Part shown: positions 3,679 to 33,539 of the stretch, one piece after another
Layout: the number at the start of each line of letters is the position of its first letter
Numbering within the stretch: the first letter of the stretch is position 1
Assembly: GCA_963769605.1 (NCBI GenBank)
Contig: CAVYML010000009.1
Span: 12,579-76,578, forward strand
Direction of reading: 5' to 3'
DNA from: Ignavibacteriota bacterium
GTDB taxonomy: Bacteria; Bacteroidota; Ignavibacteria; UBA10030
Length of the DNA stretch: 64,000 bases
Notes under the pieces: generated by a model
What the model saw: the letters and a program-made list of their open reading frames with translations, nothing else
Told to the model about the DNA's origin: nothing
Databases searched by the model: none
Made by a program: the position numbers and the translations under genes

Positions 3679-4085
3679 GCTGTTCTCTTTGATTTAATAC
3701 TTGATGGTATTGGAGATATTCCGCTTCGCGCTCAAACTTCGAAATCTGCCTTTTTTTGCGAAATGGAAGACTCAAATCTTCTTGAATACTTTAAATATAA
3801 CAAAAAAAGGTTGTTTTGTATATTCCAATTCAAAATGGAATATTTTTTTTTCAGAAGAAAGCCCCGGAACGGCTTAAGAATCGATAGAAAGAGGATTTAT
3901 TGTATTATGGCAACTAAGCGTGGTATTGAAAGATTAAACAATCACCATGTAAAATAGGGAAATTAAGTATCATGCATTCGCACGTTTCAACTGAGATAAA
4001 TGGATCACATTTATGTGATACAAATTTTTTTGGGGGGGCAAAACCGGATAAAAAAGGAATCGTACAAAAACCAATACCGAAGCAT

Positions 4086-4108
4086 CCGCGACGACCCGTC
4101 GCGGCTAC
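4086..4108. repeat. REP-like palindrome, family 2 (CCGCGACGACCCGTCGCGG with CTAC tail)
   Basis: 7-bp stem CGCGACG/CGTCGCG around an ACC loop, followed by CTAC. Near-identical copy at 4953..4975 and a GTAG-headed copy with an expanded loop at 26634..26687. Confidence 0.6.
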
Positions 4109-4175
4109 AGAAAACTACATCAATTGGATCTTGTTCCAACGTTATCTTTGTAGACGCGGGAGTTTCTCACATCCC

Positions 4176-4667
4176 TTACTTCAGTCCGTACCTTTTTAGA
4201 TATAGATATGTCAGATAGGCCGTTCCGGTCATTTCTACCGAGCTTAAAATCGTTTCCAATGTTCGGTATTCCTCCTGCCTGGCAAGATCGCTTTTCCATG
4301 CAGAGATAATATCCGCATTCGCCCTCATCGACGCAGAAGGAATGGGAGTTGAAAGTGTCAGCGCCTGCTCAAGCGAAGAGGGAAGATTCGGCGGAAGCGT
4401 CCTGAGCGACAACGGAATAATTACATTGGCCTTTTGCTTTGATAATTCGGACGTATCGAACTGGCTTTTACCGAGAGATGTATCGCGCATCTGTCCTGTT
4501 GTTTGCTTTTTTTCTCCGACTGCAGTGGAATCTTCCAGCGGCGGTGTTAGAAGTTCCCGTCCATTCGCAGCTAATACAGCCAGGAGAAAAAGACAGAAAA
4601 AAAGAGCAGAATTTATAGATCGACTATAAGGTCGGCTGAAGAAATCAAACAATTTCTTTAATCTCAT
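4176..4667 (-). CDS. Hypothetical secreted protein (signal peptide)
   Basis: 163-aa ORF with an N-terminal hydrophobic segment; no recognisable domain. Confidence 0.35.
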   Translation of the reverse strand: MRLKKLFDFFSRPYSRSINSALFFCLFLLAVLAANGRELLTPPLEDSTAVGEKKQTTGQMRDTSLGKSQFDTSELSKQKANVIIPLSLRTLPPNLPSSLEQALTLSTPIPSASMRANADIISAWKSDLARQEEYRTLETILSSVEMTGTAYLTYLYLKRYGLK

Positions 4668-12856: not shown

Positions 12857-13135
12857 ATTATTTACAATTCACATTTTTTCAGTTTTCTGTTTTCCATTTT
12901 CCATTTGCAATTTGAATTTTGCAATTCTTAGAACGCATGTGCGCCATGTGCGCCGATGGTCAGATTCGCCTGCAAAATAACTTGCATGTACGGCTGCTGC
13001 GACCATCCGCCGCCGGAAACCGGCACAGAGCGGCTCTCGTCCCTATCGAACTGAAGACGCAGCCGTGAAAATTCCGTAGGATTATATTCTATCATTGCAG
13101 AATAACGCGGAAGATTTGACGGCATAGATATATTT

Positions 13136-14782
13136 CCCGACTTGTACACAGACGGATAGTTAAGATAAAAACATGCGAAATTAGTTTGAAACGCGTAAAT
13201 TTAACATATGGTGTCATACTAAGGACTTCGTTAGAACATGTTTCATATCCGTACGACAAAAACTGGTTCCGGCGGCACAGCAGTGCAAATTATTCGGTAT
13301 CAAAACCGGAAGATGATCATCATCAAACATCTGGGTAGTACACATGATAAGAAAGATTTAAAAGCCTTAAAAGAAACAGCTACTCTCTGGATTGAGAAGA
13401 CGACCAAACAACAATCATTATTCTCCAACGAATCAGTTTCACCTACACTACAACTCAAGCAATGTCAGTATGTTGGATTTCGCTATGGTTTGATCTACGA
13501 AAGTCTTTATCAACTGTGCAAACTATTTAAATTTCATCGGTTGCGAAACAAGCTCTTGGTAGATTTAGTTATTGCACGCATTATTGAGCCAGGTTCAAAG
13601 ACACAGTCAATAGAATTTCTCAAAGAGTTCATGGGAATAGAACATAAACGTCAGGAACTCTATCGGCAAATTCCAAGGTTTCTGGGTGTGAAAGATACAG
13701 TAGAATCTAAAGTACTGGCGGTTGCTGAAAAAGAATTTGCTTTTACCTTTTCCCTCATCTTTTATGATGTAACTACTTTATACTTTGAGAGTTTTGAATC
13801 AGATGATTTACGCCAATGCGGATTCTCCAAAGATAACAAATTCAATCAACCGCAAATAGTCCTTGGACTTTTAGTGACTATTGATGGTTTTCCAGTAGGG
13901 TATCAAATATTTGAAGGCAATAAATTTGAAGGACACACGTTAATTCCTGTTATTGTGGAATTTAAGCACAAACACAAGGTTGAAAATTTCACTGTGGTTG
14001 CTGACGCTGCTATGATAAGTGATAAAAATATTACCGCACTTGCCTCTGCTCATCTTCAGTACATTGTCGGAGCCAGAATAGCAAATTTGCCACTCAAGCG
14101 TATTGCGGAGATCAGCGCTCAACTTTATCAACGCGATGGCGCAACAATGCGTATGGCAACGGAGCTTGGTGATTTGATCTGTGAATTTTCTGCAAAACGA
14201 TTTGCAAAAGATAAACGAGAGCTGGAAAAACAAATTATTAAAGCTCAGGAGCTTCTCGATAATCCAGGTAGCATCAAAAAAGTAAAATTCATTACCTCCA
14301 AAGATCAAACATATACACTTCATACTGCATTAATAGAGAAGACCAAACTACTACTTGGCATCAAAGGCTATTACACAAATCTGCCGAAGTCGGAAGTCAG
14401 TGATAACATTGTCATTGAGCATTATCATAATCTCTGGCATGTAGAGCAGGCATTTCGCATTGCAAAAAGTGATTTGCAAATGCGTCCCATCTACCACTTT
14501 AAACAAAAGACTATTAAAGCTCATATTCTCATTTGCTTCATGGCATTAGCAATTTGTAAATATATGGAGTTAAAAACGGGAAGATCGACCAAGTCTATTG
14601 TAAAATTATTGAAAGGCGTTACAGATGCTATAATGGTTAATACCCTCACAGGCGAAGAATTTACTCTACGCTCTATACTCATCGATGATGTCAAACAACT
14701 CTTGATAAAAATGGCTCTGTTGCTTTGATTTGGCCGTATTATTTCCCCTCACACGCTTGTCATACTAATTTGGACAAGTCAG
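13136..14782 (+). mobile_element. IS1634-family (IS4-like) insertion sequence, about 1.65 kb, with 18-bp target-site duplication
   Basis: Direct repeat GACGGCATAGATATATTT at 13118..13135 and 14783..14800. Terminal inverted repeats CCGACTTGTACACA (left) and TTTGGACAAGTCAG (right). Confidence 0.8.
13238..14728 (+). CDS. IS1634/IS4-family DDE transposase
   Basis: 496 aa; C-terminal motif HNLWHVEQAFRIAKSDLQMRPIYH is the Y-x2-R-x3-E-x6-K signature of IS4-type transposases; intact ORF. Confidence 0.85.
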   Translation: MFHIRTTKTGSGGTAVQIIRYQNRKMIIIKHLGSTHDKKDLKALKETATLWIEKTTKQQSLFSNESVSPTLQLKQCQYVGFRYGLIYESLYQLCKLFKFHRLRNKLLVDLVIARIIEPGSKTQSIEFLKEFMGIEHKRQELYRQIPRFLGVKDTVESKVLAVAEKEFAFTFSLIFYDVTTLYFESFESDDLRQCGFSKDNKFNQPQIVLGLLVTIDGFPVGYQIFEGNKFEGHTLIPVIVEFKHKHKVENFTVVADAAMISDKNITALASAHLQYIVGARIANLPLKRIAEISAQLYQRDGATMRMATELGDLICEFSAKRFAKDKRELEKQIIKAQELLDNPGSIKKVKFITSKDQTYTLHTALIEKTKLLLGIKGYYTNLPKSEVSDNIVIEHYHNLWHVEQAFRIAKSDLQMRPIYHFKQKTIKAHILICFMALAICKYMELKTGRSTKSIVKLLKGVTDAIMVNTLTGEEFTLRSILIDDVKQLLIKMALLL

Positions 14783-16014
14783 GACGGCATAGATATATTT
14801 TTACCGCCAAGCGAGATGTCGTTCTGCATCAGCAGGTCGTACCGCACGCCGATTTCCCAGAGCTGGTCGAGTTTGAAAACAAGCTGTGCATAAAAACCGG
14901 AATTATGTTTATCCAGACTTTGAAGTGAATCGCCGCCGAATGATTCGTGCCTGTATTCCGTTCCATTCATGACACGATACATATATTCACTTTGAAATCC
15001 GATATATCGAATGGCATCGAGAGTGTACTTGATGGTAAGGTCTGCACCTGCAATATCCGTATTTGCAGCAACTGCGTTTCCAGTATCCCCTAAAGCAGAG
15101 AATCCCGGATCGGCGTTTCTTGTCGTTCCCATGGCATTGGAGATCCCAAACAAGATCGATGCGTCTTCGATATCGAATGATGTACGAACGAATCCGATAT
15201 AAAGATTCGGCCCCTGAACCGGGCTGACGGAAATAATGTTTTTCGGATCGCTGAATCCAGCAGTACCGAAGCTTTGCTGATTTTCGCCGTTTAAAACTTC
15301 CCCGCCGAGTACGAGAAAAAACGGTGTCGGTGCGACCCATGTGGCCTGTGCGCCGATTTCATTCAATCCATCCTCGCCGAATAATGCCATTGAAATGAGC
15401 GGCTGGTTGGCAAAGTCCCAATAATGTTCATGCTGCTCATTGACCCTGCCGAAGCTTGCAAGAAATTTTCCCGCCTTTATTTTAAAACCGTACGGCAATT
15501 TCCTCGTTGAAAAATAGGCCTCTTCCAGACCGGCGCCGTCGGGAGCAAGATCGATAACGGCAAAAAGATCGAAATACGGATCGACAACGGAATAGAGCGA
15601 CATTTCACCGTAGTTGAAATTCAATCCGCGCTGTGCGTTCAATCCGGAAGAACTCGGCTGGTTCAGGAAGGGATAGCTGAAACCTGGAATTGTCAGAGAA
15701 TAATATTTTTCATTTGCCATATCCCGTGCTACGCCGGAAACATCGAGGATGAGCGCAATATCCGGAACATATTTGGACTGATCGAATGCCGATCCTTCTC
15801 TCGATTGTGCCCGTAGTAAACCGGCGGACCAAACGAATAAGAGCAATAATGCAGGAATGCATGTTTTTTGCAGTTTCATAGAAACTCCTCAAAATTTTAA
15901 TAATGACGCCATTGACAACAGTAAAATTATCGGCGTTTGTGATACGATATTGCCGGATCCGAGTCCCACTGCTTTAAAAACAGCGGACGGAACCGGAAGA
16001 TTCCATTCTTGAGG

Positions 16015-16320
16015 TCACGAAAATTGAGGAGGAGCATGCGAAGCGAAAACACGCGTATGGAATGGATGACAAACTCTTTCCGGAAGTGAGACAAAGGCAA
16101 GAAGGACGGGTTCGCGATAGAGAGAGGAACCAGCCGCCGTCTGAATTGAAGGGGCGTAATTGGAAAGCTGGAACGTGCAAATTGTGCAATTGTCCGAATT
16201 TCCGCAATCATGATGATTGTGAAAAGCACTGACAGAAATGCTTGCCAGAAGCAACAAGAGCATCAGCGCCGGAACCGCCTTGAACAGCACACGGCGTTTT
16301 TTTATCAGCATTAGTTTCAT
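16015..16320 (-). CDS. Small secreted His/Cys-rich protein (DUF2946-like; FHNHHDCG...CTIC motif)
   Basis: Start MKLMLIKKRR at 16320 and a signal peptide; paralogous in architecture to 23489..23848. Both sit upstream of an outer-membrane channel gene and downstream of a decamer-repeat array. Confidence 0.5.
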   Translation of the reverse strand: MKLMLIKKRRVLFKAVPALMLLLLLASISVSAFHNHHDCGNSDNCTICTFQLSNYAPSIQTAAGSSLYREPVLLAFVSLPERVCHPFHTRVFASHAPPQFS

Positions 16321-16378
16321 TCCGTCTTTATAATAACGAATATAGCGTTGATTATCAAACACGCAATCAGTTAAGTTC

Positions 16379-16537
16379 CCAATCTGCGTAATCCAAGCAA
16401 TCATCTGCGAAATCTCCTATCTGCGTTCAATCTGCAGCCGGAGGCCTCAGAATGTCATCCCGTGTTAACGGGATTCAACATTTTAAATCATAACCTGTCT
16501 AATCAATCTGCGCCCAATCTGTGGAATCTGAGAAATC
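16379..16537. repeat. Degenerate decamer tandem-repeat array (AATCTGCGTA-like units), locus 1
   Basis: aatctgcgtaatccaagcaatcatctgcgaaatctcctatctgcgttcaatctgcag ... aatcaatctgcgcccaatctgtggaatctgagaaatc. Lies between divergent promoters of the small His/Cys gene (minus) and the fluoride-riboswitch operon (plus). Confidence 0.7.
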
Positions 16538-16569
16538 ATTGATAATGTTCAATGATTTGATTAACTTAA

Positions 16570-16632
16570 ATGAGGCGATGGAGTTCGCCTTAAAATATCC
16601 CGAAGGTTCATCGGGATTGATGACTCCTGCAT
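16570..16632 (+). promoter_or_regulatory. Fluoride riboswitch (crcB RNA motif)
   Basis: GAGGCGAUGGAGUUCGCC...AUCCCGAAGGUUCAUCGGGAU...UGAUGACUCCUGC matches the conserved aptamer elements, including the GGAGU/ACUCC pseudoknot; followed by a stem plus U-run and the crcB RBS. Confidence 0.85.
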
Positions 16633-16683
16633 CGAAGCGAATTGCTTGCGAGGTAGGGGTTTTTCGTTTTATGAGAGGATGAA

Positions 16684-17061
16684 ATGGTTCGCAATTATTT
16701 ATATGTGTTTTTCGGCGGCGGTTTAGGTTCTTCCCTCAGATATTGGCTGTCAGGCGTAATACCGCGCTACACGGGAAGCCAGTTCCCATACGGAATTTTG
16801 ATCGTCAATATCATTGGATGCTTCTTTATCGGATTTCTTATGTCGGCCTTGGAAGAACGATTTCTAATGAATTCTTCACTTCGTGTTTTACTTACAATCG
16901 GCATTATCGGCGGTTTTACAACCTTCTCGACATTCAGTTATGAAACCCTCGCAATGATGCGGGACAGCGAATTTTTAAAAGCTTCCCTCTACGTCGGGCT
17001 TTCTCTTACACTTGGTCTGGGCGGCACATATCTTGGTTCACTTATGGGCAAACTCATTTAA
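16684..17061 (+). CDS. crcB: Fluoride ion channel CrcB/FluC
   Basis: 125 aa with four TM helices and the GFTTFSTFS motif; immediately downstream of the fluoride riboswitch. Confidence 0.9.
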   Translation: MVRNYLYVFFGGGLGSSLRYWLSGVIPRYTGSQFPYGILIVNIIGCFFIGFLMSALEERFLMNSSLRVLLTIGIIGGFTTFSTFSYETLAMMRDSEFLKASLYVGLSLTLGLGGTYLGSLMGKLI

Positions 17062-17077
17062 CCGGAAAAGGTGATCG

Positions 17078-17428
17078 ATGAAACTTTCAGGCGACGGTAA
17101 ACTCTTGCGCATCTTTATCGGTGAATCGGATAAATTTCACCATCAAGCGCTCTTCGAATCCATCATATACGCAGCCAAGGAAAAAAAATTAGCCGGCTGT
17201 ACGGTCTTGCGCGGGATCGAAGGCTATGGCGCCGACAGCCATGTCATACATACGGCAAAAATTTTGAGATTATCCGAAGATCTTCCCATCGTGATCGAAC
17301 TCGTCGACACAGAGGAGAAAATCAGGGCATTCCTGCCTGACATAGAACAAATGATTGAAGCATCGGGCTGCGGAGCGATGATAACACTTGAAAAAGCGGA
17401 AATAATCCGATACAGTCATGGAAAATGA
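17078..17428 (+). CDS. DUF190 domain protein (fluoride-riboswitch associated)
   Basis: 116 aa; DUF190 classically co-occurs with crcB under fluoride riboswitches. Confidence 0.7.
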   Translation: MKLSGDGKLLRIFIGESDKFHHQALFESIIYAAKEKKLAGCTVLRGIEGYGADSHVIHTAKILRLSEDLPIVIELVDTEEKIRAFLPDIEQMIEASGCGAMITLEKAEIIRYSHGK

Positions 17429-17512
17429 TTGCGGACTTGAATATGTCGGTAAAACGAAACAATCCGGCACGGTGTGTGGATGCCAATGAACCCTGCTACG
17501 GAATAACGTTAA

Positions 17513-18832
<1,320 letters not shown>

Positions 18833-19023
18833 CGCTCGATGAGCGGATTGCAAAGATTTGGTGCAGATAATAAATTCCGCATTGAAAGAACAATCTGAGC
18901 AGTTGCCCTATGCAGGTGCATTGTGTTTTATATTTCGATAACGATCGGAGCGGCCTTTGGATTTATCGCTTCGCTCATGGCATTTGTAATAACATGGAAT
19001 GAATGAGAAAAGCATTAATTTGA

Positions 19024-19080
19024 AAACCAGCGGCTTTGGCGCGAATCTCTTCAAGCGGCTGGTTTTACTTTTCTGTTTTT
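19024..19080 (+). terminator. Rho-independent terminator candidate downstream of eno
   Basis: AACCAGCGGCTT...AAGCGGCTGGTT stem with one mismatch, followed by TTTTACTTTTCTGTTTTTTC. Confidence 0.5.
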
Positions 19081-19227
19081 TCTCTTATTGTCGATGCTGA
19101 TCGGCTATATCATTGCACGATATGGTATAAAATAATATCTCACGAAGAAAAATCAGGATTCTCAAAGGAAAGCAGTAAGCATTTATACTTGCTGCTTTCC
19201 AGCATCCATATTATCTGTGTTCCATCA

Positions 19228-19283
19228 GTGAAATCTGTGTAATCAACTATCTGCGTTTAATCTGCGTAATCTGCGCAATCATC
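19228..19283. repeat. Decamer tandem-repeat array, locus 2 (upstream of zupT)
   Basis: gtgaaatctgtgtaatcaactatctgcgtttaatctgcgtaatctgcgcaatcatc. Confidence 0.7.
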
Positions 19284-19360
19284 ATTGCAGCTGCTTGAAG
19301 AGATACGGAAAAATGCTTACTGTTTAGTACCAATGAAATTGTGAATAAAGGAGATCTCTC

Positions 19361-20080
19361 ATGATTGTAATGAGTATTGGTGCAGCTGCGTTTATCGCAA
19401 CTTTTCTCGGAGGATTATTTGCGCTCAAGTTTAAAGACAAGCTGCACCTCATCACGGGATTCAGTGCGGGTGCAATCATCGGCGTTGCGTTCTTCGATCT
19501 TCTTCCAGAAGCTGTTACCCTAAAAAATGAACATCAAGGAATTTCAACGATATCGCTCATGATCGGTATCGGGTTTATCGTCTATATGATTTTAGAGCGA
19601 GCGATTGTTGTGCATTCGTCTCATGAAAGCGGCTGTGAAAATTCCAGACATCGCGGTATTCTTGGTGCGGGCAGCCTCTCAATCCATAGTTTTCTGGACG
19701 GAGTGATTATCGGCCTTGCGTTCCAAATTTCCAATTCAGTCGGAACAATCGTAACGGTGGCGGTTCTTACCCACGATTTCTCCGACGGCATCAATACAGT
19801 AACAATGATTGTGCGAAGCAAAGGAGAACGCAGACAAGCGTTGCGTTGGCTGATTGCAGATGCGTTCGCACCGGTTCTTGGAATTTGCACGACATTCTTC
19901 TATTCTATCCCAAAAGAAGCACTAAGCATCGTCCTAAGCGTTTTCTGCGGATGTTTTATTTATATCGGGGCAAGTGATCTTCTCCCTGAAAGTCATCACG
20001 CCCATCCCAAGACTTTCACAACCTTCATGACGCTTCTTGGTATGGCAACACTCTATGCTGTTATACAAATTGCGGGGTGA
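19361..20080 (+). CDS. zupT: ZIP family metal (Zn/Fe) transporter
   Basis: 239 aa with 8 TM helices and HSxxDG/HDFSDG metal-binding motifs typical of ZupT. Confidence 0.85.
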   Translation: MIVMSIGAAAFIATFLGGLFALKFKDKLHLITGFSAGAIIGVAFFDLLPEAVTLKNEHQGISTISLMIGIGFIVYMILERAIVVHSSHESGCENSRHRGILGAGSLSIHSFLDGVIIGLAFQISNSVGTIVTVAVLTHDFSDGINTVTMIVRSKGERRQALRWLIADAFAPVLGICTTFFYSIPKEALSIVLSVFCGCFIYIGASDLLPESHHAHPKTFTTFMTLLGMATLYAVIQIAG

Positions 20081-20124
20081 GTGGATTGCTGGAAGTACTG
20101 GGGGAAAGTGATAAAAGATGAAGG

Positions 20125-20673
20125 TTAACTGTCCGCAATTATGCCTTCACCCTCTTGTGAGGTATCATGTTTGCAAACGACATCTTCAGGCCACAGCAAT
20201 TGCTTGCCGCTTGCTCTCATCTCATTCATGGTTGACCACATAAACCAGAACGCTATGCCGATACTGATCAAAGAATCAAATTCAGGTCTCCCCGTCATCC
20301 CGACAAGGATACTCGCAAGAACCGGTACTAAAGACACGTACGTATCGCCAAGGTTGTGAATGTACGCCAGCCGAATTGCTGCATTCTGTCTGCGAACATT
20401 CTTTAACGATTGCGCAACAAACCAGTTTCCTAACGCTGCAAGCAGTCCGACAATGGCCGGGGATAGTGCAAGAATCGGAACCGGATAAAAAAAGCGATGG
20501 ATTGCTTGAACAATAAGGATCGCACTTATGAAAATCAATCCGACAGAATTCAGAAGATTGGCAAATCTTTGAAGATTTTTAGAAAGCTTTGCCGCGAGCG
20601 TATAGACAAGATATAGGCACACAAGGGCGAGTTCATCTGAAAGATTGTGAATGCCATCCATAATCAGGCTCAT
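20125..20673 (-). CDS. Cation diffusion facilitator (CDF) family transporter, apparently lacking a canonical start and C-terminal cytoplasmic domain
   Basis: MDGIHNLSDE is the TM2 HxxxD motif. The in-frame upstream extension to about 20850 encodes a CDF TM1 (AHVRKSLAIASSLNSIIFVGEGIAGFKTGS) but contains no ATG/GTG/TTG. A G6 run lies at 20783..20788. Confidence 0.6.
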   Translation of the reverse strand: MSLIMDGIHNLSDELALVCLYLVYTLAAKLSKNLQRFANLLNSVGLIFISAILIVQAIHRFFYPVPILALSPAIVGLLAALGNWFVAQSLKNVRRQNAAIRLAYIHNLGDTYVSLVPVLASILVGMTGRPEFDSLISIGIAFWFMWSTMNEMRASGKQLLWPEDVVCKHDTSQEGEGIIADS

Positions 20674-20893
20674 GCTCCCTGTTTTGAACCCGGCTATTCC
20701 TTCACCGACAAAGATTATGGAGTTTAAGCTTGATGCAATCGCAAGCGACTTGCGAACGTGCGCTATGATTATTTCTAAATTTGGGGGGAGTGAACGATCA
20801 AGCTCACTCCCCAGGTATTCATCAAAAATATTTCGTAATTGCTCAGTGCATTATGAAACAATTGTTTTTTACTGGTTTTCAATCCCCCTTTTT

Positions 20894-20915
20894 CCCCCTT
20901 TTAAACAAAAGGGGG
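20894..20915. terminator. Stem-loop CCCCCTTTT-AAAC-AAAAGGGGG downstream of the TonB-dependent receptor gene
   Basis: Perfect 9-bp stem read directly. Confidence 0.45.
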
Positions 20916-20979
20916 AGACTCTGTAAGAGAGGGGGATTTTTAATCTTTTAAATATCACGTTGAGTAATTACAATATTTC

Positions 20980-23403
20980 TTAAATATGAACGGCAACTTT
21001 AAAAACAACGTTCCGTGGTTCTTCAAAACTTGCTGCGCTGAAATACGCACCTTTAATCAAATGTTCATGATCAAGCAAGTTGGTGACATAGATTGAAGGC
21101 TCAAGTGTAGCGCCTCCCGTCAAATGGAATGTATATCCTCCACCGATATTGAAAATCCATGATGGAGTTGTATGCGCAGCCTGATTAAAATCGAATAATC
21201 CAGTTCCAAACGAGATAGCGTTTCCATTTGTGAGCCCTGATCCGTAAATCGCAACAAGATTGGCAAACCAATCTTGGGGTTGATAATTGAGACCCGTAAC
21301 AATGGAAAGCCGTTGATCGTGATCGAGATCCGTTGCCGGCCCGTCGCTATCAAGCGGTAAGAATCCGCCGCTAATGAGACCGGTTCCGTAGGCGTGAATA
21401 ATCGATGTGTTCATATAACCGGAAAAAGGAATAACAGGATCGCTGTACGAAAGTCCAAGTTCAATACCCGTTGTACGCACTTGTGCAATGTTCACGGGGG
21501 TTTTGATTGCCGACGATCCGATGGTTTGATCATCAACTCCCGGTGTGGCATATTTGTAGAACACGTCGGCCTTACTGCGTAAACCGAATACGAATAGATG
21601 CGTGTATACCGCTTCATAAAAATCATCCCTCTCCGCCAGCGTCGGCACGAGTGCAACGTTTGAGCCGTTGAAATTAACCGCGATAGATTTCAGACCCTCG
21701 ATATTGGTCGGCATGAACATGCGTCCATAATACAAATAGGCCGTATTGTCCTCATCCATTAAAAAATTCCATCGAATGCGCGGACTAATTTGGCTTTGGA
21801 GAGGCATATCCGGAGCAATATGTTGGTCATATCGGGTGCCTAATTCGAACGATGTCCATTCCATGGGATGCCATTCAGCTTGCAGGAACAAGCCGAAATC
21901 CGATCCGCTAAAATCAGTTACCAAAGAAGGGCCAGTGTTGCCGGCAGAATCATGTGAAGTAAAATTTTCCACTCCGGTCGTTGCGCTGAAATTAAAGCCC
22001 GCTTTATACATAAACTCGTGAGAAATCCTCTTGTCAAACGTAGACCGTATACCCAGCGTTGTGAAACTCCGATTCTCTCCAATCAGATATCTGTTCGTGT
22101 CTCCGACAAATTGAGAGAGCGCAGGATCGTTGCTGCCCGGAGAGTAGATCAATCCGCCTTCGCGTGCATAAACACCAGCAAAAAAGTTTGATTCTCGGTC
22201 TGCATCCGCATTGAGGGTGCGGTAATACGAAAGAGTTTGAAACGAGTTTGTTGTGGTCTGCATATCATTGGCAATTTGCTCCACGGAATCAAACGGGATT
22301 TGCGTGTTCGTTCTGCCGAAATTCAAATTTGTCGTTATATAGTCAACGTCACTCAATATATAATCAGCTTTGCCGTACAAAAAATAATCCTGCCCGTGGT
22401 CATGAAATAGTTGTTCGACGGGCTGATCGATGCGGCGATCGGTTTCCTGGCGCGAGCCTGAAATAAAGAAGCCGAGATTACCAACGTGATCGCTCATCGA
22501 TAAAGCCTGGCCGTCGGAATTCAAAGCACGAAACGGCCCAACTCGTTCTGATTCTTCGGATGGATCAGACACTAAGTAGCTTCCTACATATGTCGAAGCA
22601 TCCAGATGAAATGCTCCGGTTGGCACTCGATTTTGCAGATCAATAATTGCGGCATTTTGTCCGCCGTATTCCGCTGAAAATCCTCCCGTGATAAATGTAG
22701 CACGATCTATAACTTTTTGATCGACGACATCATTGAGTCCGCCGAACACGCCAAGCGGGACAGGAAGCCCGTCAACGTAGTAGGTGAATTCTCCATGTTG
22801 CCCCCTAATGTGTACCTCGCCCGTCGGGGCGCGTGCTGCTCCTAAAATGTTTTCCTGTACCAGGTTCGTCATCTGAGCGGTCGGCGTAGGGTGAAATGTT
22901 TCAGATTCGAACACTTGGTTGCCGGTATTGAGATTAATGCTTGAAACGGCAAGTTCCCGCATCCCGACAACTTCCACGTCTTTTTCGGAGTTTCCTTGTG
23001 AGCGAAGAAATATCTGATATGTGGAATGATCGTTATCGATAACGATCGTGTCTGTAAAGGTCTTATAACCGACAAACCATGCTTGAACGGCATAACTGCC
23101 AGGTGCAATATCGCGAAATCGCGCCTGTCCGGCAGGGGATGTAACCTCTTCCGAAATAAACTTTCCATTTCGTTTTAATACGACACGTGCGAGTTCAATA
23201 GGTGTATTCCCGCTGGAATCGCTGACGGCCACTTTCCATTGAATGCCGCGTTCATTTCCGCTTGAGTTTATATCCGATTTATCCGGCGCTTCGGACGATG
23301 GTTTCAATATATAATTATAATGTGCTATTGGGTTCGATAAATTTTGTGCAAAAGAAAAATTAAAGAACACAAGCAAGGTTGTAAGAATAATAATTAAACG
23401 CAT
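20980..23403 (-). CDS. TonB-dependent receptor with N-terminal carboxypeptidase-regulatory-like domain
   Basis: 807 aa with signal peptide, CarbopepD_reg-like segment, plug and beta-barrel ending in an aromatic residue. Confidence 0.85.
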   Translation of the reverse strand: MRLIIILTTLLVFFNFSFAQNLSNPIAHYNYILKPSSEAPDKSDINSSGNERGIQWKVAVSDSSGNTPIELARVVLKRNGKFISEEVTSPAGQARFRDIAPGSYAVQAWFVGYKTFTDTIVIDNDHSTYQIFLRSQGNSEKDVEVVGMRELAVSSINLNTGNQVFESETFHPTPTAQMTNLVQENILGAARAPTGEVHIRGQHGEFTYYVDGLPVPLGVFGGLNDVVDQKVIDRATFITGGFSAEYGGQNAAIIDLQNRVPTGAFHLDASTYVGSYLVSDPSEESERVGPFRALNSDGQALSMSDHVGNLGFFISGSRQETDRRIDQPVEQLFHDHGQDYFLYGKADYILSDVDYITTNLNFGRTNTQIPFDSVEQIANDMQTTTNSFQTLSYYRTLNADADRESNFFAGVYAREGGLIYSPGSNDPALSQFVGDTNRYLIGENRSFTTLGIRSTFDKRISHEFMYKAGFNFSATTGVENFTSHDSAGNTGPSLVTDFSGSDFGLFLQAEWHPMEWTSFELGTRYDQHIAPDMPLQSQISPRIRWNFLMDEDNTAYLYYGRMFMPTNIEGLKSIAVNFNGSNVALVPTLAERDDFYEAVYTHLFVFGLRSKADVFYKYATPGVDDQTIGSSAIKTPVNIAQVRTTGIELGLSYSDPVIPFSGYMNTSIIHAYGTGLISGGFLPLDSDGPATDLDHDQRLSIVTGLNYQPQDWFANLVAIYGSGLTNGNAISFGTGLFDFNQAAHTTPSWIFNIGGGYTFHLTGGATLEPSIYVTNLLDHEHLIKGAYFSAASFEEPRNVVFKVAVHI

Positions 23404-23488
23404 ATTTCCTTCTCCTCGATATAGGAATGAATGAGAACTCCGAAAGAAAATTTTTCAGTGTTCCGTTTTTAAATTGTAAAAAGAGAGA

Positions 23489-23848
23489 TTAACCGAGAAG
23501 AGAAGGCGGACCGCGACGGGAGAAAGAACGAAAGAGATGGTCTTGAATAAGATGCGGAGATGTAATGGTCGGAGCAGTACCAACCACTTGGACCTCGCCA
23601 AAATCCAGCGAGATTTGATCGGGGGCGATTCTGCTGTGTGCTGAGAGACAGATACTGCATTCGGAATGTTCCGACAACGGAATCTGTTTGCAGTGATCGG
23701 CATCTTCATGCGGAAAAAACCGGGCTTCGAATGATCCGCTGGGGACAATGGGATGGTCATGGATGAAATCATGCAGTCCGAAACCGACAAGATGACTCGC
23801 AAGAATAAGGAGAACAAGTATTTTATTTTTTTTCTTCACGGCCATCAT
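23489..23848 (-). CDS. Small secreted His/Cys-rich protein (DUF2946-like; HDFIHDH...HEDADHC...CSIC)
   Basis: 119 aa with signal peptide; immediately upstream of the TonB-dependent receptor; paralogous architecture to 16015..16320. Confidence 0.5.
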   Translation of the reverse strand: MMAVKKKNKILVLLILASHLVGFGLHDFIHDHPIVPSGSFEARFFPHEDADHCKQIPLSEHSECSICLSAHSRIAPDQISLDFGEVQVVGTAPTITSPHLIQDHLFRSFSRRGPPSLLG

Positions 23849-23920
23849 TCTAAGGTGGTTCTTATTATAACGAAGATTTTAACGAGAAGTTCCAAAATAA
23901 TCAAGGTTATGTGCATCATT

Positions 23921-24032
23921 AATTTGCGCAATCAACTATCTTTGTACAATCCGTGAAATCTGCGTAATCAATCTGTACAATCTAATATCTGCGTACAATC
24001 CGTGAAATCTGCGCAATCAATCTGCGTAATCA
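23921..24032. repeat. Decamer tandem-repeat array, locus 3; includes a ~90-bp block repeated at 25003..25092
   Basis: aatttgcgcaatcaactatctttgtacaatccgtgaaatctgcgtaatcaatctgtacaatctaatatctgcgtacaatccgtgaaatctgcgcaatcaatctgcgtaatca; overlaps the pirin stop codon. Confidence 0.75.
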
Positions 24033-24926
24033 TTTTATAAACGTGTCATTCCGCAGATCGTTCATCGCCTGTTTAATTTCTTCCTGAGTATTCATAACAA
24101 TGGGACCGTACCATGCAATAGGTTCTTTAATCGGTTTTCCGGAGACGAGCAGAAAGCGCATCCCCTTCTCTCCCGCCTGCACGGATACCTCATCGCCTTT
24201 ATCGAATAAAATCATAGAACGGTTGCCGAGTTCTGCCTGCTTCGAATTTACGGACCCGACAAGTTCCGTCTGTACTCCTTGAGGCGCCGAAGTTCCGCGA
24301 AAATTTCCGCTTCCATCAAAAATATATGCAAACGTATGCCGGAATGTTTCCACCGGCAAAATTTTCCGTTTTCCCGGCGGCACCCAAACATCCAGATATT
24401 GAGGATCCGCTGCAATGCCTTCTACGGGTCCGATCTTTCCCCGGAAGTTTCCGCAAACGACACGGATGCGAGTACCGTCGTCGTCCATAAGTTCCGGAAT
24501 TTCCTTTGCCCCGATATCCTGATAACGCGGTTTAGTCATTTTTTGTGAAGAAGGAAGATTTGCCCAGAGCTGAAAACCATGCATTCGCCCGTTCGGATCC
24601 CCTTTCGGCATCTCCTGATGAAGTATCCCGCTCCCGGCGGTCATCCATTGAACATCGCCGGCTGCAAGCGTGCCGCTGTTGCCAAGGCTGTCGCCGTGAT
24701 TGACCGATCCGGCAAGCACATACGTAATGGTTTCTATTCCCCGGTGCGGATGCCATGGAAATCCTGCAAGATAATCTTCAGGACGCTCGTTGCGAAAATC
24801 ATCGAAAAGGAGAAACGGGTCGAACTCGGCGGTATCTCCGAAACCGAACGCGCGCTGCAGCTTTACTCCCGCTCCTTCAAGAGTCGGTTTAGTCCGAATG
24901 ATTTGTTTGATAGGCCGTAGAGACAT
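24030..24926 (-). CDS. Pirin family protein (bicupin, quercetin 2,3-dioxygenase-like)
   Basis: Start MSLRPIKQIIRT...; HPHRGIETITYVL motif and two cupin halves. The listed ORF extends to 24992 but the conserved start is at 24926. Confidence 0.85.
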   Translation of the reverse strand: MSLRPIKQIIRTKPTLEGAGVKLQRAFGFGDTAEFDPFLLFDDFRNERPEDYLAGFPWHPHRGIETITYVLAGSVNHGDSLGNSGTLAAGDVQWMTAGSGILHQEMPKGDPNGRMHGFQLWANLPSSQKMTKPRYQDIGAKEIPELMDDDGTRIRVVCGNFRGKIGPVEGIAADPQYLDVWVPPGKRKILPVETFRHTFAYIFDGSGNFRGTSAPQGVQTELVGSVNSKQAELGNRSMILFDKGDEVSVQAGEKGMRFLLVSGKPIKEPIAWYGPIVMNTQEEIKQAMNDLRNDTFIK

Positions 24927-24997
24927 AGATTTGTTCCTTTTAAATCTAAAACAACGAACGCCGCCCGCTTGTTCCTCAATTTGACCGGCCATCTAAG

Positions 24998-25094
24998 ATC
25001 TGTGTACAATCCGTGAAATCTGCGTAATCAATCTGCGCAATCTAATATCTGCGTACAATCCGTGAAATCTGCGTAATCAATCTGCGTAATCAAT
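24998..25094. repeat. Decamer tandem-repeat array, locus 4 (upstream of pirin); ~96% identical over ~90 bp to locus 3
   Basis: atctgtgtacaatccgtgaaatctgcgtaatcaatctgcgcaatctaatatctgcgtacaatccgtgaaatctgcgtaatcaatctgcgtaatcaatac. Confidence 0.75.
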
Positions 25095-25361
25095 ACTCGA
25101 TCCCTACCCGTGTGGCGGTTTTGCACATCCCTGAATGAAGAAACCTTTGGCAGGTATCATTCGTTTTAAGTGTACATGGATTTAAGGGTTTCGCGTCAAA
25201 TTACATTTGCGATAAAAGCAAGGTTTGATTACATTAAAGAGTTACAAAATCAACAACGAAATCCTCTCATAACGTTCTGAAAATAATTTTCTCAAGAATC
25301 GTTATACCATTATTTACTCGTCCGGCATGAGATATATAGGAAAATCTCACCGCATCTGGAA

Positions 25362-25616
25362 TTGTCAGGATTTAATATGAATAAAAGAAAGAAACAAATG
25401 GAAACAGAACAAAAAAATAATACGCTGCATGGCAAGACGCTGGAGGCAATCCTTCAGCACCTTGTAGAGTATTACGGCTGGCAGGAACTTGGACTTCGGA
25501 TCAGAATCAGATGTTTTACGGATAATCCGAGTATGCAGTCCAGTTTAAAGTTTCTGCGCAAAACTCCGTGGGCGCGGGAAAAAGTGGAGACCCTATACCT
25601 CGAGTGCGCCGACTAA
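25362..25616 (+). CDS. VF530/DUF2132 family small protein
   Basis: [53 protein letters not shown] matches the conserved core of this family. Confidence 0.65.
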
Positions 25617-25865: not shown

Positions 25866-26012
25866 AACCGCCGCTTTTCGGCAAATACCATGCCACCTGA
25901 AACTATTCCTATCTTGAAACGGTTGTACGGTTAGTGACAAATTCTTGCAGCCGTTGAGACAATGTATAATATCAATATTCCGGAATTTCTACATTTTAAC
26001 AATGGAGGAAAT

Positions 26013-26556
26013 ATGAAAAAATCCTTTTTTACATTGGCCCTTGCTTGCATTATCATGAGCATGCAAATAATTGCTCAAGATAACCATACGATGCAGCAGG
26101 TTCCCGTCGTTAAGCGGGCAATTGCAGTGATTACACCGACAAAAGGGAATACCGTGCACGGAACCGTGACATTCGAACAGGTCGATGGCGGTGTCCGGGT
26201 TGTGGCCAGCCTGACCGGATTAAAACCGGGGAAACATGGATTTCATATTCACGAATTCGGCGATATAAGTTCCGAGGACGGGAAGTTCTGCAGGCGGGCA
26301 TTTTAACCCGATGGGAATGCCGCACAGCATGCCGACGAGCCAAAAACGCCACGCGGGTGATATGGGAAATATCGAAGCTGATGAAAACGGAAACGCACAT
26401 CTCGACTATATCGATCCGGTTATGAAACTCGACGGGGATCATCCCATCATCGGTCATGCCGTCATTATTCACGAAAAAGAAGACGATTTTAAAACGCAGC
26501 CGACAGGAAATGCGGGGCCAAGAATCGGATACGGGGTCATCGGAATCGCAAAATAA
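26013..26556 (+). pseudogene. sodC: Cu/Zn superoxide dismutase (SodC) with frameshift at about 26286..26290
   Basis: Frame 1 gives the signal peptide and ...GFHIHEFGDISSEDGK; frame 2 continues SAGGHFNPMGMP...HAGDMGNIEAD...NAGPRIGYGVIGIAK. Deleting one T from AAGTTCTGC joins them into a complete SodC. Confidence 0.8.
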
Positions 26557-31070: not shown

Positions 31071-31094
31071 GGACACACTGGCATGTGTCCCTAC
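31071..31094. repeat. REP palindrome, family 1 (GGACACACTGGCATGTGTCC + CTAC)
   Basis: Overlaps the flotillin-like gene stop; the CTAC tail supplies the minus-strand TAG. Related to the copy at 33516..33539. Confidence 0.65.
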
Positions 31095-32940: not shown

Positions 32941-33498
32941 TTATTTCCCGTGTTGTTGATTTTGAACGCTGTTGGGATTTTCTTCATCTTCCTGCCATTT
33001 CAAAGGATTATGAATAATATAATCCCGAATTTTGTTCAAAGAATCGTCGTTCCGGATGATGTGTTCATAATAATTCTTTTGCCAAACAGGAATTCCAGGT
33101 ATTGCACGATATTCATTAATCCGTTTTGTAGCGGCCGCTTTGAATAAACGAACGATGGTTGGTATCGAATTGGATGTTGGTTTGCCAAATTGTTCTTTCG
33201 TAGGGGCACGTTGCAACGTGCCCCTACATTCTATCAAAACAATAATGCCATGAATATGATTTGGCATTATCACAAACGAATCCAATTCAACCTCTGGACG
33301 GATATCTTTCGTTTTATACCATTCTTCCTGCACAATCTTACCAATCTTATTCAACTGCATCTCTTCTTGCATAATTTCCCCGAACAGACATTTCTTTTCA
33401 TGCGTGCATATTGTTATAAAATATGCACCTGGCGACGAATAACTATATTCTTTTAAACGTATAGATTTACGATGATGAATTGCCGGATCGTATTTCAT
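32941..33498 (-). CDS. REP-associated tyrosine transposase (RAYT, IS200/IS605 TnpA-like)
   Basis: HuH motif MPNHIHGII and catalytic Tyr region YIIHNP. Flanked by GTAG/CTAC-type REP palindromes and contains an internal 28-bp perfect palindrome at 33200..33227. Confidence 0.8.
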   Translation of the reverse strand: MKYDPAIHHRKSIRLKEYSYSSPGAYFITICTHEKKCLFGEIMQEEMQLNKIGKIVQEEWYKTKDIRPEVELDSFVIMPNHIHGIIVLIECRGTLQRAPTKEQFGKPTSNSIPTIVRLFKAAATKRINEYRAIPGIPVWQKNYYEHIIRNDDSLNKIRDYIIHNPLKWQEDEENPNSVQNQQHGK

Positions 33499-33515: not shown

Positions 33516-33539
33516 GGGACACACGCCGTGTGTCCCTAC
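33516..33539. repeat. REP palindrome, family 1 (GGGACACACG CCGTGTGTCCC + TAC)
   Basis: Perfect 11-bp inverted repeat with CTAC tail, 18 bp upstream of the RAYT start. Confidence 0.7.

Follow-up and report, generated by a model that had tools for sequence, protein, structure and literature searches.

Within the 64,000-nt stretch of Ignavibacteriota DNA analyzed here (hereafter, the window), a minus-strand pirin gene lies in company with genes of a metal homeostasis island, which includes genes for ZnuA/ZnuB, a TonB receptor, CDF, ZIP, and Cu/Zn SOD, as well as crcB-DUF190-enolase behind a fluoride riboswitch. Precomputed hits to PF02678 and PF05726 on an identical protein place the product in the pirin family, and a protein search returned thousands of homologues at E<=1e-100. 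A longer pirin ORF that reaches 24992 has a start that is not conserved, and the homologues share the 298-aa length of the shorter form. The gene is paired with a divergent gene of the VF530 family on one side, and on the other side it is followed by a gene whose 119-aa product is His/Cys-rich and distantly paralogous to the 129-aa protein encoded at 16015-16404. Pirin itself is accompanied by two nearly identical tracts of tandem units, one immediately 3' of the gene (T_DN) and the other upstream of its start codon (T_UP). The coordinates of these and related features are collected in Table 1.

Table 1. Genes, repeat tracts, and other features around pirin in the window
Feature	Position	Strand	Remarks
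Composite module tract-H1 hairpin-tract	16382..16540	-	H1 hairpin at 16441-16495
Third tract	19213..19285	-	Adjoins hairpin H2 (19167-19200); flanked by the enolase and ZIP genes
119-aa His/Cys-rich protein gene	23489..23848	-	First gene after T_DN; no Pfam or NCBIfam family
T_DN	23941..24032	-	3' of pirin, upstream of the 119-aa/TonB receptor operon; ~2 x 49-nt units
Pirin gene	24030..24926	-	298 aa, Pirin and Pirin_C domains; called as 298 aa in L026/L027/L028
Promoter-like element GGAAC-N14-CGTTG	24952..24975	-	Upstream of pirin; read from the sequences
T_UP	25001..25092	-	Upstream of the pirin ATG by 74 nt; similarity spans ~24990-25095
VF530-family gene	25377..25616	+	Divergent from pirin; pairing kept in all syntenic relatives

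The presence of near-identical blocks on both sides of pirin, noticed in a preliminary description of this DNA, is borne out by the sequence itself, the repeat search, the alignment, and a direct count, all of which agree. By alignment and direct count, 4 of the 92 positions differ between 23941-24032 and 25001-25092 (at 23942, 23976, 23977, and 24014; the differences are T/G, T/C, A/G, and C/T), while the slightly shorter pair 23943-24032 and 25003-25092 differs at 3 of 90 positions (96.7% identity). Beyond the blocks, the repeat search and the alignment detect weaker similarity that extends the pair to about 105-108 nt at ~91-92% identity, and weaker tract-like sequence continues from T_DN on to ~23925. 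A 33-nt probe taken from the blocks has two matches in each block and none elsewhere in the window, against a chance expectation of 0.00 in 100 shuffles. The internal unit had been described as a duplication of ~31 bp; the actual period reported by TRF for both blocks is 49 nt (2.0-2.2 copies, 89-92% matches), together with a 13-nt sub-period, and the ~31 nt correspond to the best-conserved part of the unit, which is a stretch of 33 nt. Each 49-nt unit is in turn composed of 9-13-nt subunits of the GATTNNNCA type, and the text of the plus strand reads as a chain of such 9-13-nt subunits, each with an AATC end.

The description of pirin as precisely flanked by the blocks is accurate at its 3' end only. 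There, the stop codon does lie inside the downstream block, which in the sense of pirin is the left block, since the gene is on the minus strand: the left block closes with 24030-24032, whose reverse complement is the TGA, so that the stop codon makes up the first three bases of T_DN in the sense of pirin. The unit length of 49 nt is not divisible by three, and stop codons interrupt the tract in each of the three frames. At the 5' end, in contrast, a conserved leader/promoter region of 74 nt separates the block edge (25001) from the ATG (24926). This region holds the motif GGAAC-N14-CGTTG, with a spacer that is constant in length and variable in sequence among the window and the relatives L112 and L116; this pattern suggests that the motif is a promoter-like element of pirin. 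T_UP is placed ~20 nt upstream of it. Scans for sigma-70 promoters and for terminators gave matches at chance level. Identical two-block loci are present in the separate assemblies L026, L027, and L119, therefore the arrangement is not an assembly artefact.

The two blocks are members of a larger family. The core AATCTGCG occurs 11 times on the plus strand of the window and not once on the minus strand, versus 3.6 occurrences expected for the two strands combined. Clusters of ATCTG-type units delimit five tracts, all in one orientation (16382-16440, 16496-16540, 19213-19285, ~23925-24035, and ~24990-25095); they are all located within 16.4-25.1 kb, and the remaining ~55 kb of the window has no tract. 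The whole 49-nt unit is found at high identity only in the pirin pair, and the other tracts have 9-13-nt subunits. No cluster was detected by the same criterion in 823 kb of unrelated loci, and nhmmer profiles of the 49-nt unit matched only the window (range 16364-25091) and its relatives. Judged from these sequences, the tract family appears to be specific to this Ignavibacteriota lineage.

Some of the tracts are linked to a conserved module, H1, which consists of a hairpin and, after it, GACATTCTSAGGCCTCCGGCTG|CAGATT. H1 has one copy in the window and two each in L112 and L116, and it is also present in L007 and L109. Its folding is stronger than that of shuffled sequence (z about -2.4 to -2.5), and its stem has compensatory changes between copies, as read from the sequences. 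The tracts fold no better than shuffles (z of +1.2 and +1.5 in the sense of pirin, and -1.5 and -0.35 in the other sense), and the repeat search found no inverted repeat in them. On the minus strand, the composite module of H1 and two tracts precedes the 129-aa/znu operon, and on the plus strand it precedes the fluoride riboswitch. That riboswitch was the only Rfam match at the gathering threshold, with nothing at the tracts or H1, and the H1 tail AGGCCTCCGGCTGCAGATTG had 0 matches in viral contigs. A small plus-strand ORF in H1 (MSSRVNGIQHFKS) with a strong GGAGG-ATG was rejected as a gene, as it is not conserved in L116.

A protein search with pirin gave a graded series of relatives, whose contigs were collected, and one relative (L007) was recovered by a probe scan of genome contigs. 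An exact look-up of the pirin protein identified L026, L027, and L028 as contigs of the same strain. In the other syntenic relatives, the identity of the pirin coding sequence to that of the window is 95.0% (L109), 88.7% (L007), 86.8% (L110), 86.7% (L112), and 79.7% (L116). Of the pirin loci that are more distant, L125 and L127 lack synteny, and the partly syntenic L128 has no tract. The 80 metagenome pirin loci at 70-76% identity, mostly from soil, served as negative background, and none of them has tracts. The scan of genome contigs with the family probe GTGAAATCTGYGYAATCAA gave 25 single matches versus ~17 calculated for chance; only L007, an Ignavibacteriota metagenome-assembled genome, is a real relative, and the other 24 are close to the chance number.

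The divergent VF530-pirin pair is retained in L109, L110, L112, L007, and L116, that is, in every syntenic relative down to 80% identity, and in all syntenic relatives a tract follows the pirin stop codon on the 3' side. The 5' tract is found only in the same-strain contigs (L026/L027/L119) and in L109. The alignment with L007 has a clean gap of ~94 nt at the 5' block, with the spacer otherwise alignable; the sequences upstream of pirin in L110 and L112 have no tract; and L116 has a tract-like seed of ~25 nt, CGCAGATGGCAGATTGATTT, at the equivalent 5' position. The 5' block is restricted to the same-strain contigs and L109, while all the syntenic relatives have pirin; we regard this block as a lineage-specific novelty. 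The preliminary description had named pirin with the same two repeats in all relatives as the pattern that would speak against mobility of the gene; all the syntenic relatives indeed have pirin, but only the closest have both repeats.

Comparison of the tracts at the level of units provides further detail on their history. In the window each of the two tracts comprises 2 units, compared with about 3 in L109, and the 3' tract of L110 has 1 unit. The extra T_DN unit of L109 has CACTGATT in common with the more distant L007, suggesting that the window lost a unit. In the window and L109 the units cluster by position and not by genome: in both of them, the T_DN units end in GTACAGATT and the T_UP units in G[CT]GCAGATT. 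The divergence between the T_UP and T_DN units (3-7% in the window, ~10% in L109) is similar to the divergence of the neighbouring spacer between the window and L109 (~5%), thus there is no sign of strong later homogenisation. The 5' copy has the same junctions in the window and L109, namely ...gatcgagtat|TGATTAC and GATGG|CCGG, which indicates a single origin before their split. It starts with the same TGATTACGCAGATT that holds the pirin stop in the 3' copy, and in L109 a tract with the same TGATTACGCAGATT start also stands after the stop of the TonB receptor gene. The common start suggests that the tract has a defined 5' end and was copied from there onward.

The explanation that we favor, with a probability of roughly 0.7, is that the 5' block is a recent ectopic copy, ~105 nt long, of an old 3' tract, made when pirin was already in place. 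It builds on the repeat itself, its distribution among relatives, the copy boundaries common to the window and L109, and the variation in copy number. The old tract would start at the pirin stop codon and fill the spacer before the 119-aa/TonB receptor operon. In a recent common ancestor of the window strain and its 95%-identical relative L109, ~105 nt from the TGATTACGCAG start onward would have been copied to a site ~1 kb away that lies ~20 nt before the promoter-like element, within the variable portion of the VF530-pirin spacer. The copying was probably a template switch or a gene conversion that started from microhomology, and not a transposition, and whole units may later have been gained or lost in both copies by replication slippage or unequal recombination. 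Pirin, which would not have been brought in by the repeats, would now be located between direct repeats long enough for homologous deletion.

The timing of the 5' copy rests on few genomes, since L109 is the sole relative between 89% and 100% identity, and the insertion boundaries are uncertain to ~10-15 nt due to the poor conservation of the adjoining spacer. The nearest relative differs between segments; given such reticulate histories, recombination could have carried the two-tract segment from one lineage to another. It is also possible that there was a small ancestral 5' tract, comparable to the CGCAGATGGCAGATTGATTT seed of L116, that was later overwritten by conversion from the 3' tract.

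At the scale of the island, blastn synteny reveals four gene orders among the window, L007, L112, and L116. Written in the direction of pirin, with T for a tract, they are pirin-[H1/T]-small gene-znu in L116; pirin-[T]-119aa-TonB-[T/H1/T]-small gene-znu in L007; pirin-[T/H1/T]-H2-(enolase lost)-DUF190-crcB-[T]-small gene-znu in L112; and [T]-pirin-[T]-119aa-TonB-CDF-ZIP-[T]-H2-enolase-DUF190-crcB-[T/H1/T]-129aa-...IS...-znu in the window. The large indels between them have six breakpoints in window coordinates (16362/3, 16507/8, 19135/6, 20979/80, 23975/6, and 24028/9). The TonB receptors of L109 and L007 have 88% identity to one another and ~71% identity to that of the window, suggesting that the TonB block was replaced in the window strain.

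The preliminary description had found the repeats consistent with recombination-mediated insertion, duplication, or excision of a pirin cassette, or with duplication of a promoter region. As a mobile cassette, pirin would enter or leave by recombination between the repeats, either through Campbell-type integration of a circle with pirin and one repeat or through pop-out deletion. Direct repeats of 92 nt with ~96% identity around ~1 kb would in principle be enough for RecA-dependent deletion, and the relatives differ in whether other gene blocks of the island occur between tract modules. Insertion of pirin is nevertheless contradicted by its constant position in all the syntenic relatives, with nucleotide identities as low as 80% and including the relatives with one tract, and by its divergence, which follows that of its flanks. 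Excision is unsupported: look-ups with the exact 119-aa and VF530 proteins yielded no excision junction and no contig that joins the flanks of pirin without pirin, the short-read contigs L028, L121, and L124 merely stop inside tracts, as expected for an assembly break, and Pfam scans of about 50 window ORFs detected no recombinase nearby. We consider a pirin cassette highly improbable; the suggested duplication holds for the repeat, a copied tract, and fails for pirin itself. Gain and loss of repeat-bounded segments seems to fit the neighbouring gene blocks at the scale of the island, rather than pirin. It is hardly credible that the tracts are REP/BIME-type elements mobilised by the RAYT-like Y1 transposase that is encoded in the window at 32941-33498. 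This protein matches NCBIfam REP_Tyr_transpos with E 2.6e-19 (69.5 bits, below the cut-off of 80) and TnpA-REP of PDB 4er8 with E 0.0055, but its hairpins (GTAGGGRCAC... at 31085, 33200-33227, and 33530) have no sequence in common with the tracts. Moreover, the tracts lack inverted repeats and any folding beyond that of shuffled sequence, and there is no GTAG-stem in the tract, H1, or H2.

Two other readings concern the function of the tracts more than the origin of the 5' block. The tracts and H1 may be recombination hot spots that delimit exchangeable cassettes, like the mosaic repeats of Neisseria, an unlikely yet not negligible reading under which the new 5' tract would be a by-product of hot-spot recombination; this is compatible with the ectopic copy that we favor. 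Each of the six breakpoints is in or beside a tract, H1, or H2 module, the junction in every relative has such a module, and the TonB receptor block was apparently exchanged in the window strain. However, viable breakpoints fall anyway between operons, where the modules sit, so that the coincidence is only suggestive; the breakpoints are re-used and represent few independent events; one boundary of the TonB replacement is between the 119-aa and receptor genes, outside a tract; and no pair of empty and filled sites was found between very close strains. The other reading, which we regard as unlikely, is that the tract is a cis-regulatory module, for example an array of regulator binding sites for metal-uptake operons. 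As the copied tract is the upstream region of the next operon and landed a short way upstream of the promoter-like element of pirin, the two blocks could represent a promoter-region duplication, which would bring pirin under the same control as the 119-aa/TonB operon. In line with this, tracts (in the CAGATT direction) precede small, paralogous genes for His/Cys-rich proteins that stand first in metal-uptake operons of the window, L007, L112, and L116, and the ECF-sigma-like -35 motif GGAAC(TT) often comes immediately after the tract. Every tract is inside the one metal-homeostasis island, tracts are kept at orthologous positions across ~20% divergence, and the next ATG is at a similar distance from the block edges (74 nt for T_UP, ~92 nt for T_DN). 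Against a regulatory role, unit number, sequence, and spacing differ considerably between strains (GATT spacings of 4, 9, and 18 nt), which is ill-suited to a fixed operator, and no gene lies downstream of the tract at 19213-19285 when it is read that way. Known operator consensus sequences were not recognised in the tracts, sigma-70-type matches are at chance, and no regulator gene was identified in the window. Resemblances to IHF, DnaA-box, XerC/dif-arm, CsrA (GGA), RNase E (RN|WUU), and Rho rut sites are partial in each case, and we claim none of them. Both roles would meet if the tract/H1 modules were functional cassette junctions, namely preferred sites of homologous recombination and possibly shared upstream regulatory arrays that operate without a dedicated recombinase; the operon-sized cassettes, which would be gained, lost, and exchanged among Ignavibacteriota strains, would be 119-aa/TonB receptor, CDF-ZIP, crcB-DUF190-enolase, and znu. 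We view this proposal, too, as doubtful.

With regard to known systems, the tracts appear to be repeats of the minisatellite or mosaic intergenic kind. MIRU-VNTR loci consist of tandem intergenic units of 40-100 bp, with several loci per genome and strain-variable copy numbers (PMC3184786, PMC3635867). The tracts are similar in having an intergenic unit of 49 nt, several loci, and 2 versus about 3 copies between strains, and here the tract is flush with the stop codon of the upstream gene. In contrast to MIRU-VNTR, they belong to a different phylum, and no sequence relation is expected. MIRU copies are scattered genome-wide; within the window, the five tracts lie in 9 kb. MIRUs contain small coupled ORFs, whereas the stops in all three frames leave none in the tracts. 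BIMEs are mosaics of short intergenic modules that are placed after genes and associated with recombination (PMC3184786). The combination of tract, H1 hairpin, and H2 hairpin is a comparable intergenic mosaic; however, REPs are G+C-rich imperfect palindromes, while the tract is non-palindromic and unstructured. No stem-loop palindrome with a 5' GTAG was found in the tracts, and GTAG hairpins are found only around the RAYT-like gene. The NIMEs, intergenic arrays of repeat units that surround variable loci, have been proposed to promote recombination (PMC3184786). The modules described here are likewise at gene-order breakpoints, where they may have a role in recombination. The units of NIMEs are bounded by inverted repeats of ~20 bp (dRS3), in contrast to the tracts, which no inverted repeats bound.

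Several types of mobile or diversifying elements were considered and rejected. Like MITEs, the tracts are short, non-coding, and multi-copy, they occupy intergenic positions, and they can arise at a new site. They lack terminal inverted repeats and a stable fold, and the junctions of the 5' copy (gagtat|TGATT ... GATGG|ccgg) show no duplicated target site. An integron cassette was rejected, as there is no attC-like inverted repeat, and no integrase or recombinase was detected by Pfam among about 50 window ORFs. For a diversity-generating retroelement, Pfam scans found no reverse transcriptase, the differences between the repeats are not adenine-specific, and the repeats are non-coding apart from the stop codon.

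For genome annotation, this locus illustrates that direct repeats placed neatly around a gene need not mean a mobile cassette: in the comparative loci analyzed here, the repeat appears to have moved and the gene to have stayed. The tracts constitute a previously undescribed local repeat family in the Ignavibacteriota, which are known almost only from metagenomes. The copy number in this family is strain-variable, its tracts break short-read assemblies, and it marks the rearrangement points of a zinc/metal and fluoride homeostasis island. If the tracts are recombination or regulatory modules, they would offer a simple means of recombinase-free shuffling and co-regulation of uptake operons; and if the modules do act as cassette junctions, the new 5' tract would have just made pirin such a cassette.

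The intergenic tandem-repeat arrays (tracts) begin with TGATTRCRCAG, located 0-6 nt past the upstream gene's stop codon, and each of the three reading frames through them meets a TGA stop within about 65 nt. Two hairpin modules, H1 and H2, are joined or adjacent to some of these tracts. In the conserved H1 module, the tail AGGCCTCCGGCTGCAGATTG is invariant, and the stem carries compensatory changes among copies (ATCCCG/CGGGAT, ATTTCG/CGGAAT, and ATCATGC/GCATGAT), with a fold z-score of about -2.4 to -2.5. H1 had no match in Rfam. A sequence related to H1, AGCCGGAGGCCT, is present in L128, a contig with a more distant pirin locus that lacks tracts. The H2 hairpin was found again in L112, a relative's contig (~3150-3190), 3' of pirin at a rearranged junction. 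The enolase gene is mostly absent from the same contig.

Features identified in the window and in contigs of relatives (L-numbers)
Feature	Position	Strand	Details
Fluoride riboswitch	16565-16636	+	Rfam RF01734, 45.1 bits, E 2.8e-9
crcB, DUF190, enolase genes	16684-17061, 17078-17428, 17543-18832		downstream of fluoride riboswitch
H1 hairpin module	16441-16495
H1 copies in relatives	L007 2963-3027; L109 14222-14296; L112 3030-3110, 8333-8419; L116 10909-10983, 14577-14649
H2, long perfect hairpin GGAAAGCAGTAAGCATTTATACTTGCTGCTTTCC	19167-19200		adjoins tract
TGATTRCRCAG tract starts	24030-24035, 25090-25095; L109 14179-14200
IS1634-family insertion sequence	13127-14809; transposase ORF 13238-14728	+	NCBIfam E 1.3e-95
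RAYT-like Y1 transposase	32941-33498	-	REP_Tyr_transpos 69.5 bits (cut-off 80, not reached); PDB 4er8 TnpA-REP E 0.0055
GTAG-type REP hairpins	31085-31094, 33200-33227, 33530-33539		RAYT-like gene region
Small membrane-anchored His/Cys-rich protein genes	23489-23848; 16015-16404 (likely start 16320)	both -
Small His/Cys-rich protein genes, relatives	L116 11076-11423; L128 ~4000-4400		uncalled gene in L128

The IS1634-family element, which L007, L112 and L116 lack, lies between a 366-aa gene and znuA and interrupts the small-protein/znu operon. The 366-aa gene is probably truncated, because its version in relatives encodes 426-428 aa. A second transposase gene, the RAYT-like one, contains a perfect 28-nt palindrome GTAGGGGCACGTTGCAACGTGCCCCTAC in its coding sequence, and the RAYT-SPFH gene pair is flanked on both sides by GTAG-type REP hairpins. 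The Cu/Zn superoxide dismutase gene is broken at ~26283 into two ORFs (25962-26306 and 26311-26556) by a single extra A (GGGAAG in the window vs GGGAG in L026); in this same-strain contig, otherwise 100% identical, the gene is intact (180 aa). Either the gene is truly frameshifted in the window or the extra A is an error of sequencing.

The TonB receptor gene of the window (20980-23403, minus strand) is only ~71% identical to its counterparts in L109 and L007, which share 88% identity with each other, while the adjacent pirin gene is 95% identical between the window and L109. These comparisons suggest replacement of the TonB receptor block in the window strain. A 130-nt piece 3' of the receptor gene (20835-20966) contains a G/C-run hairpin; its L109 counterpart is found at a different place, between the 119-aa gene (the first after the tract 3' of pirin) and the TonB receptor gene.

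The small His/Cys-rich proteins share an H-x-D...C-x-I-C core and a C-terminal PP motif and were not assigned to any family in Pfam or NCBIfam. Their genes are always first in metal-uptake operons (TonB receptor or znu), and the two window copies have 29% identity. ATAACGA motifs resembling the palindrome ATAACGTTCTGAAAATAATTTTCTCAAGAATCGTTAT are located upstream of the 119-aa gene (~23866-23890). The operator-like palindrome itself lies in the spacer between pirin and the divergent VF530 gene (25269-25305), is kept in all relatives as far as L116, and may be a regulator binding site.
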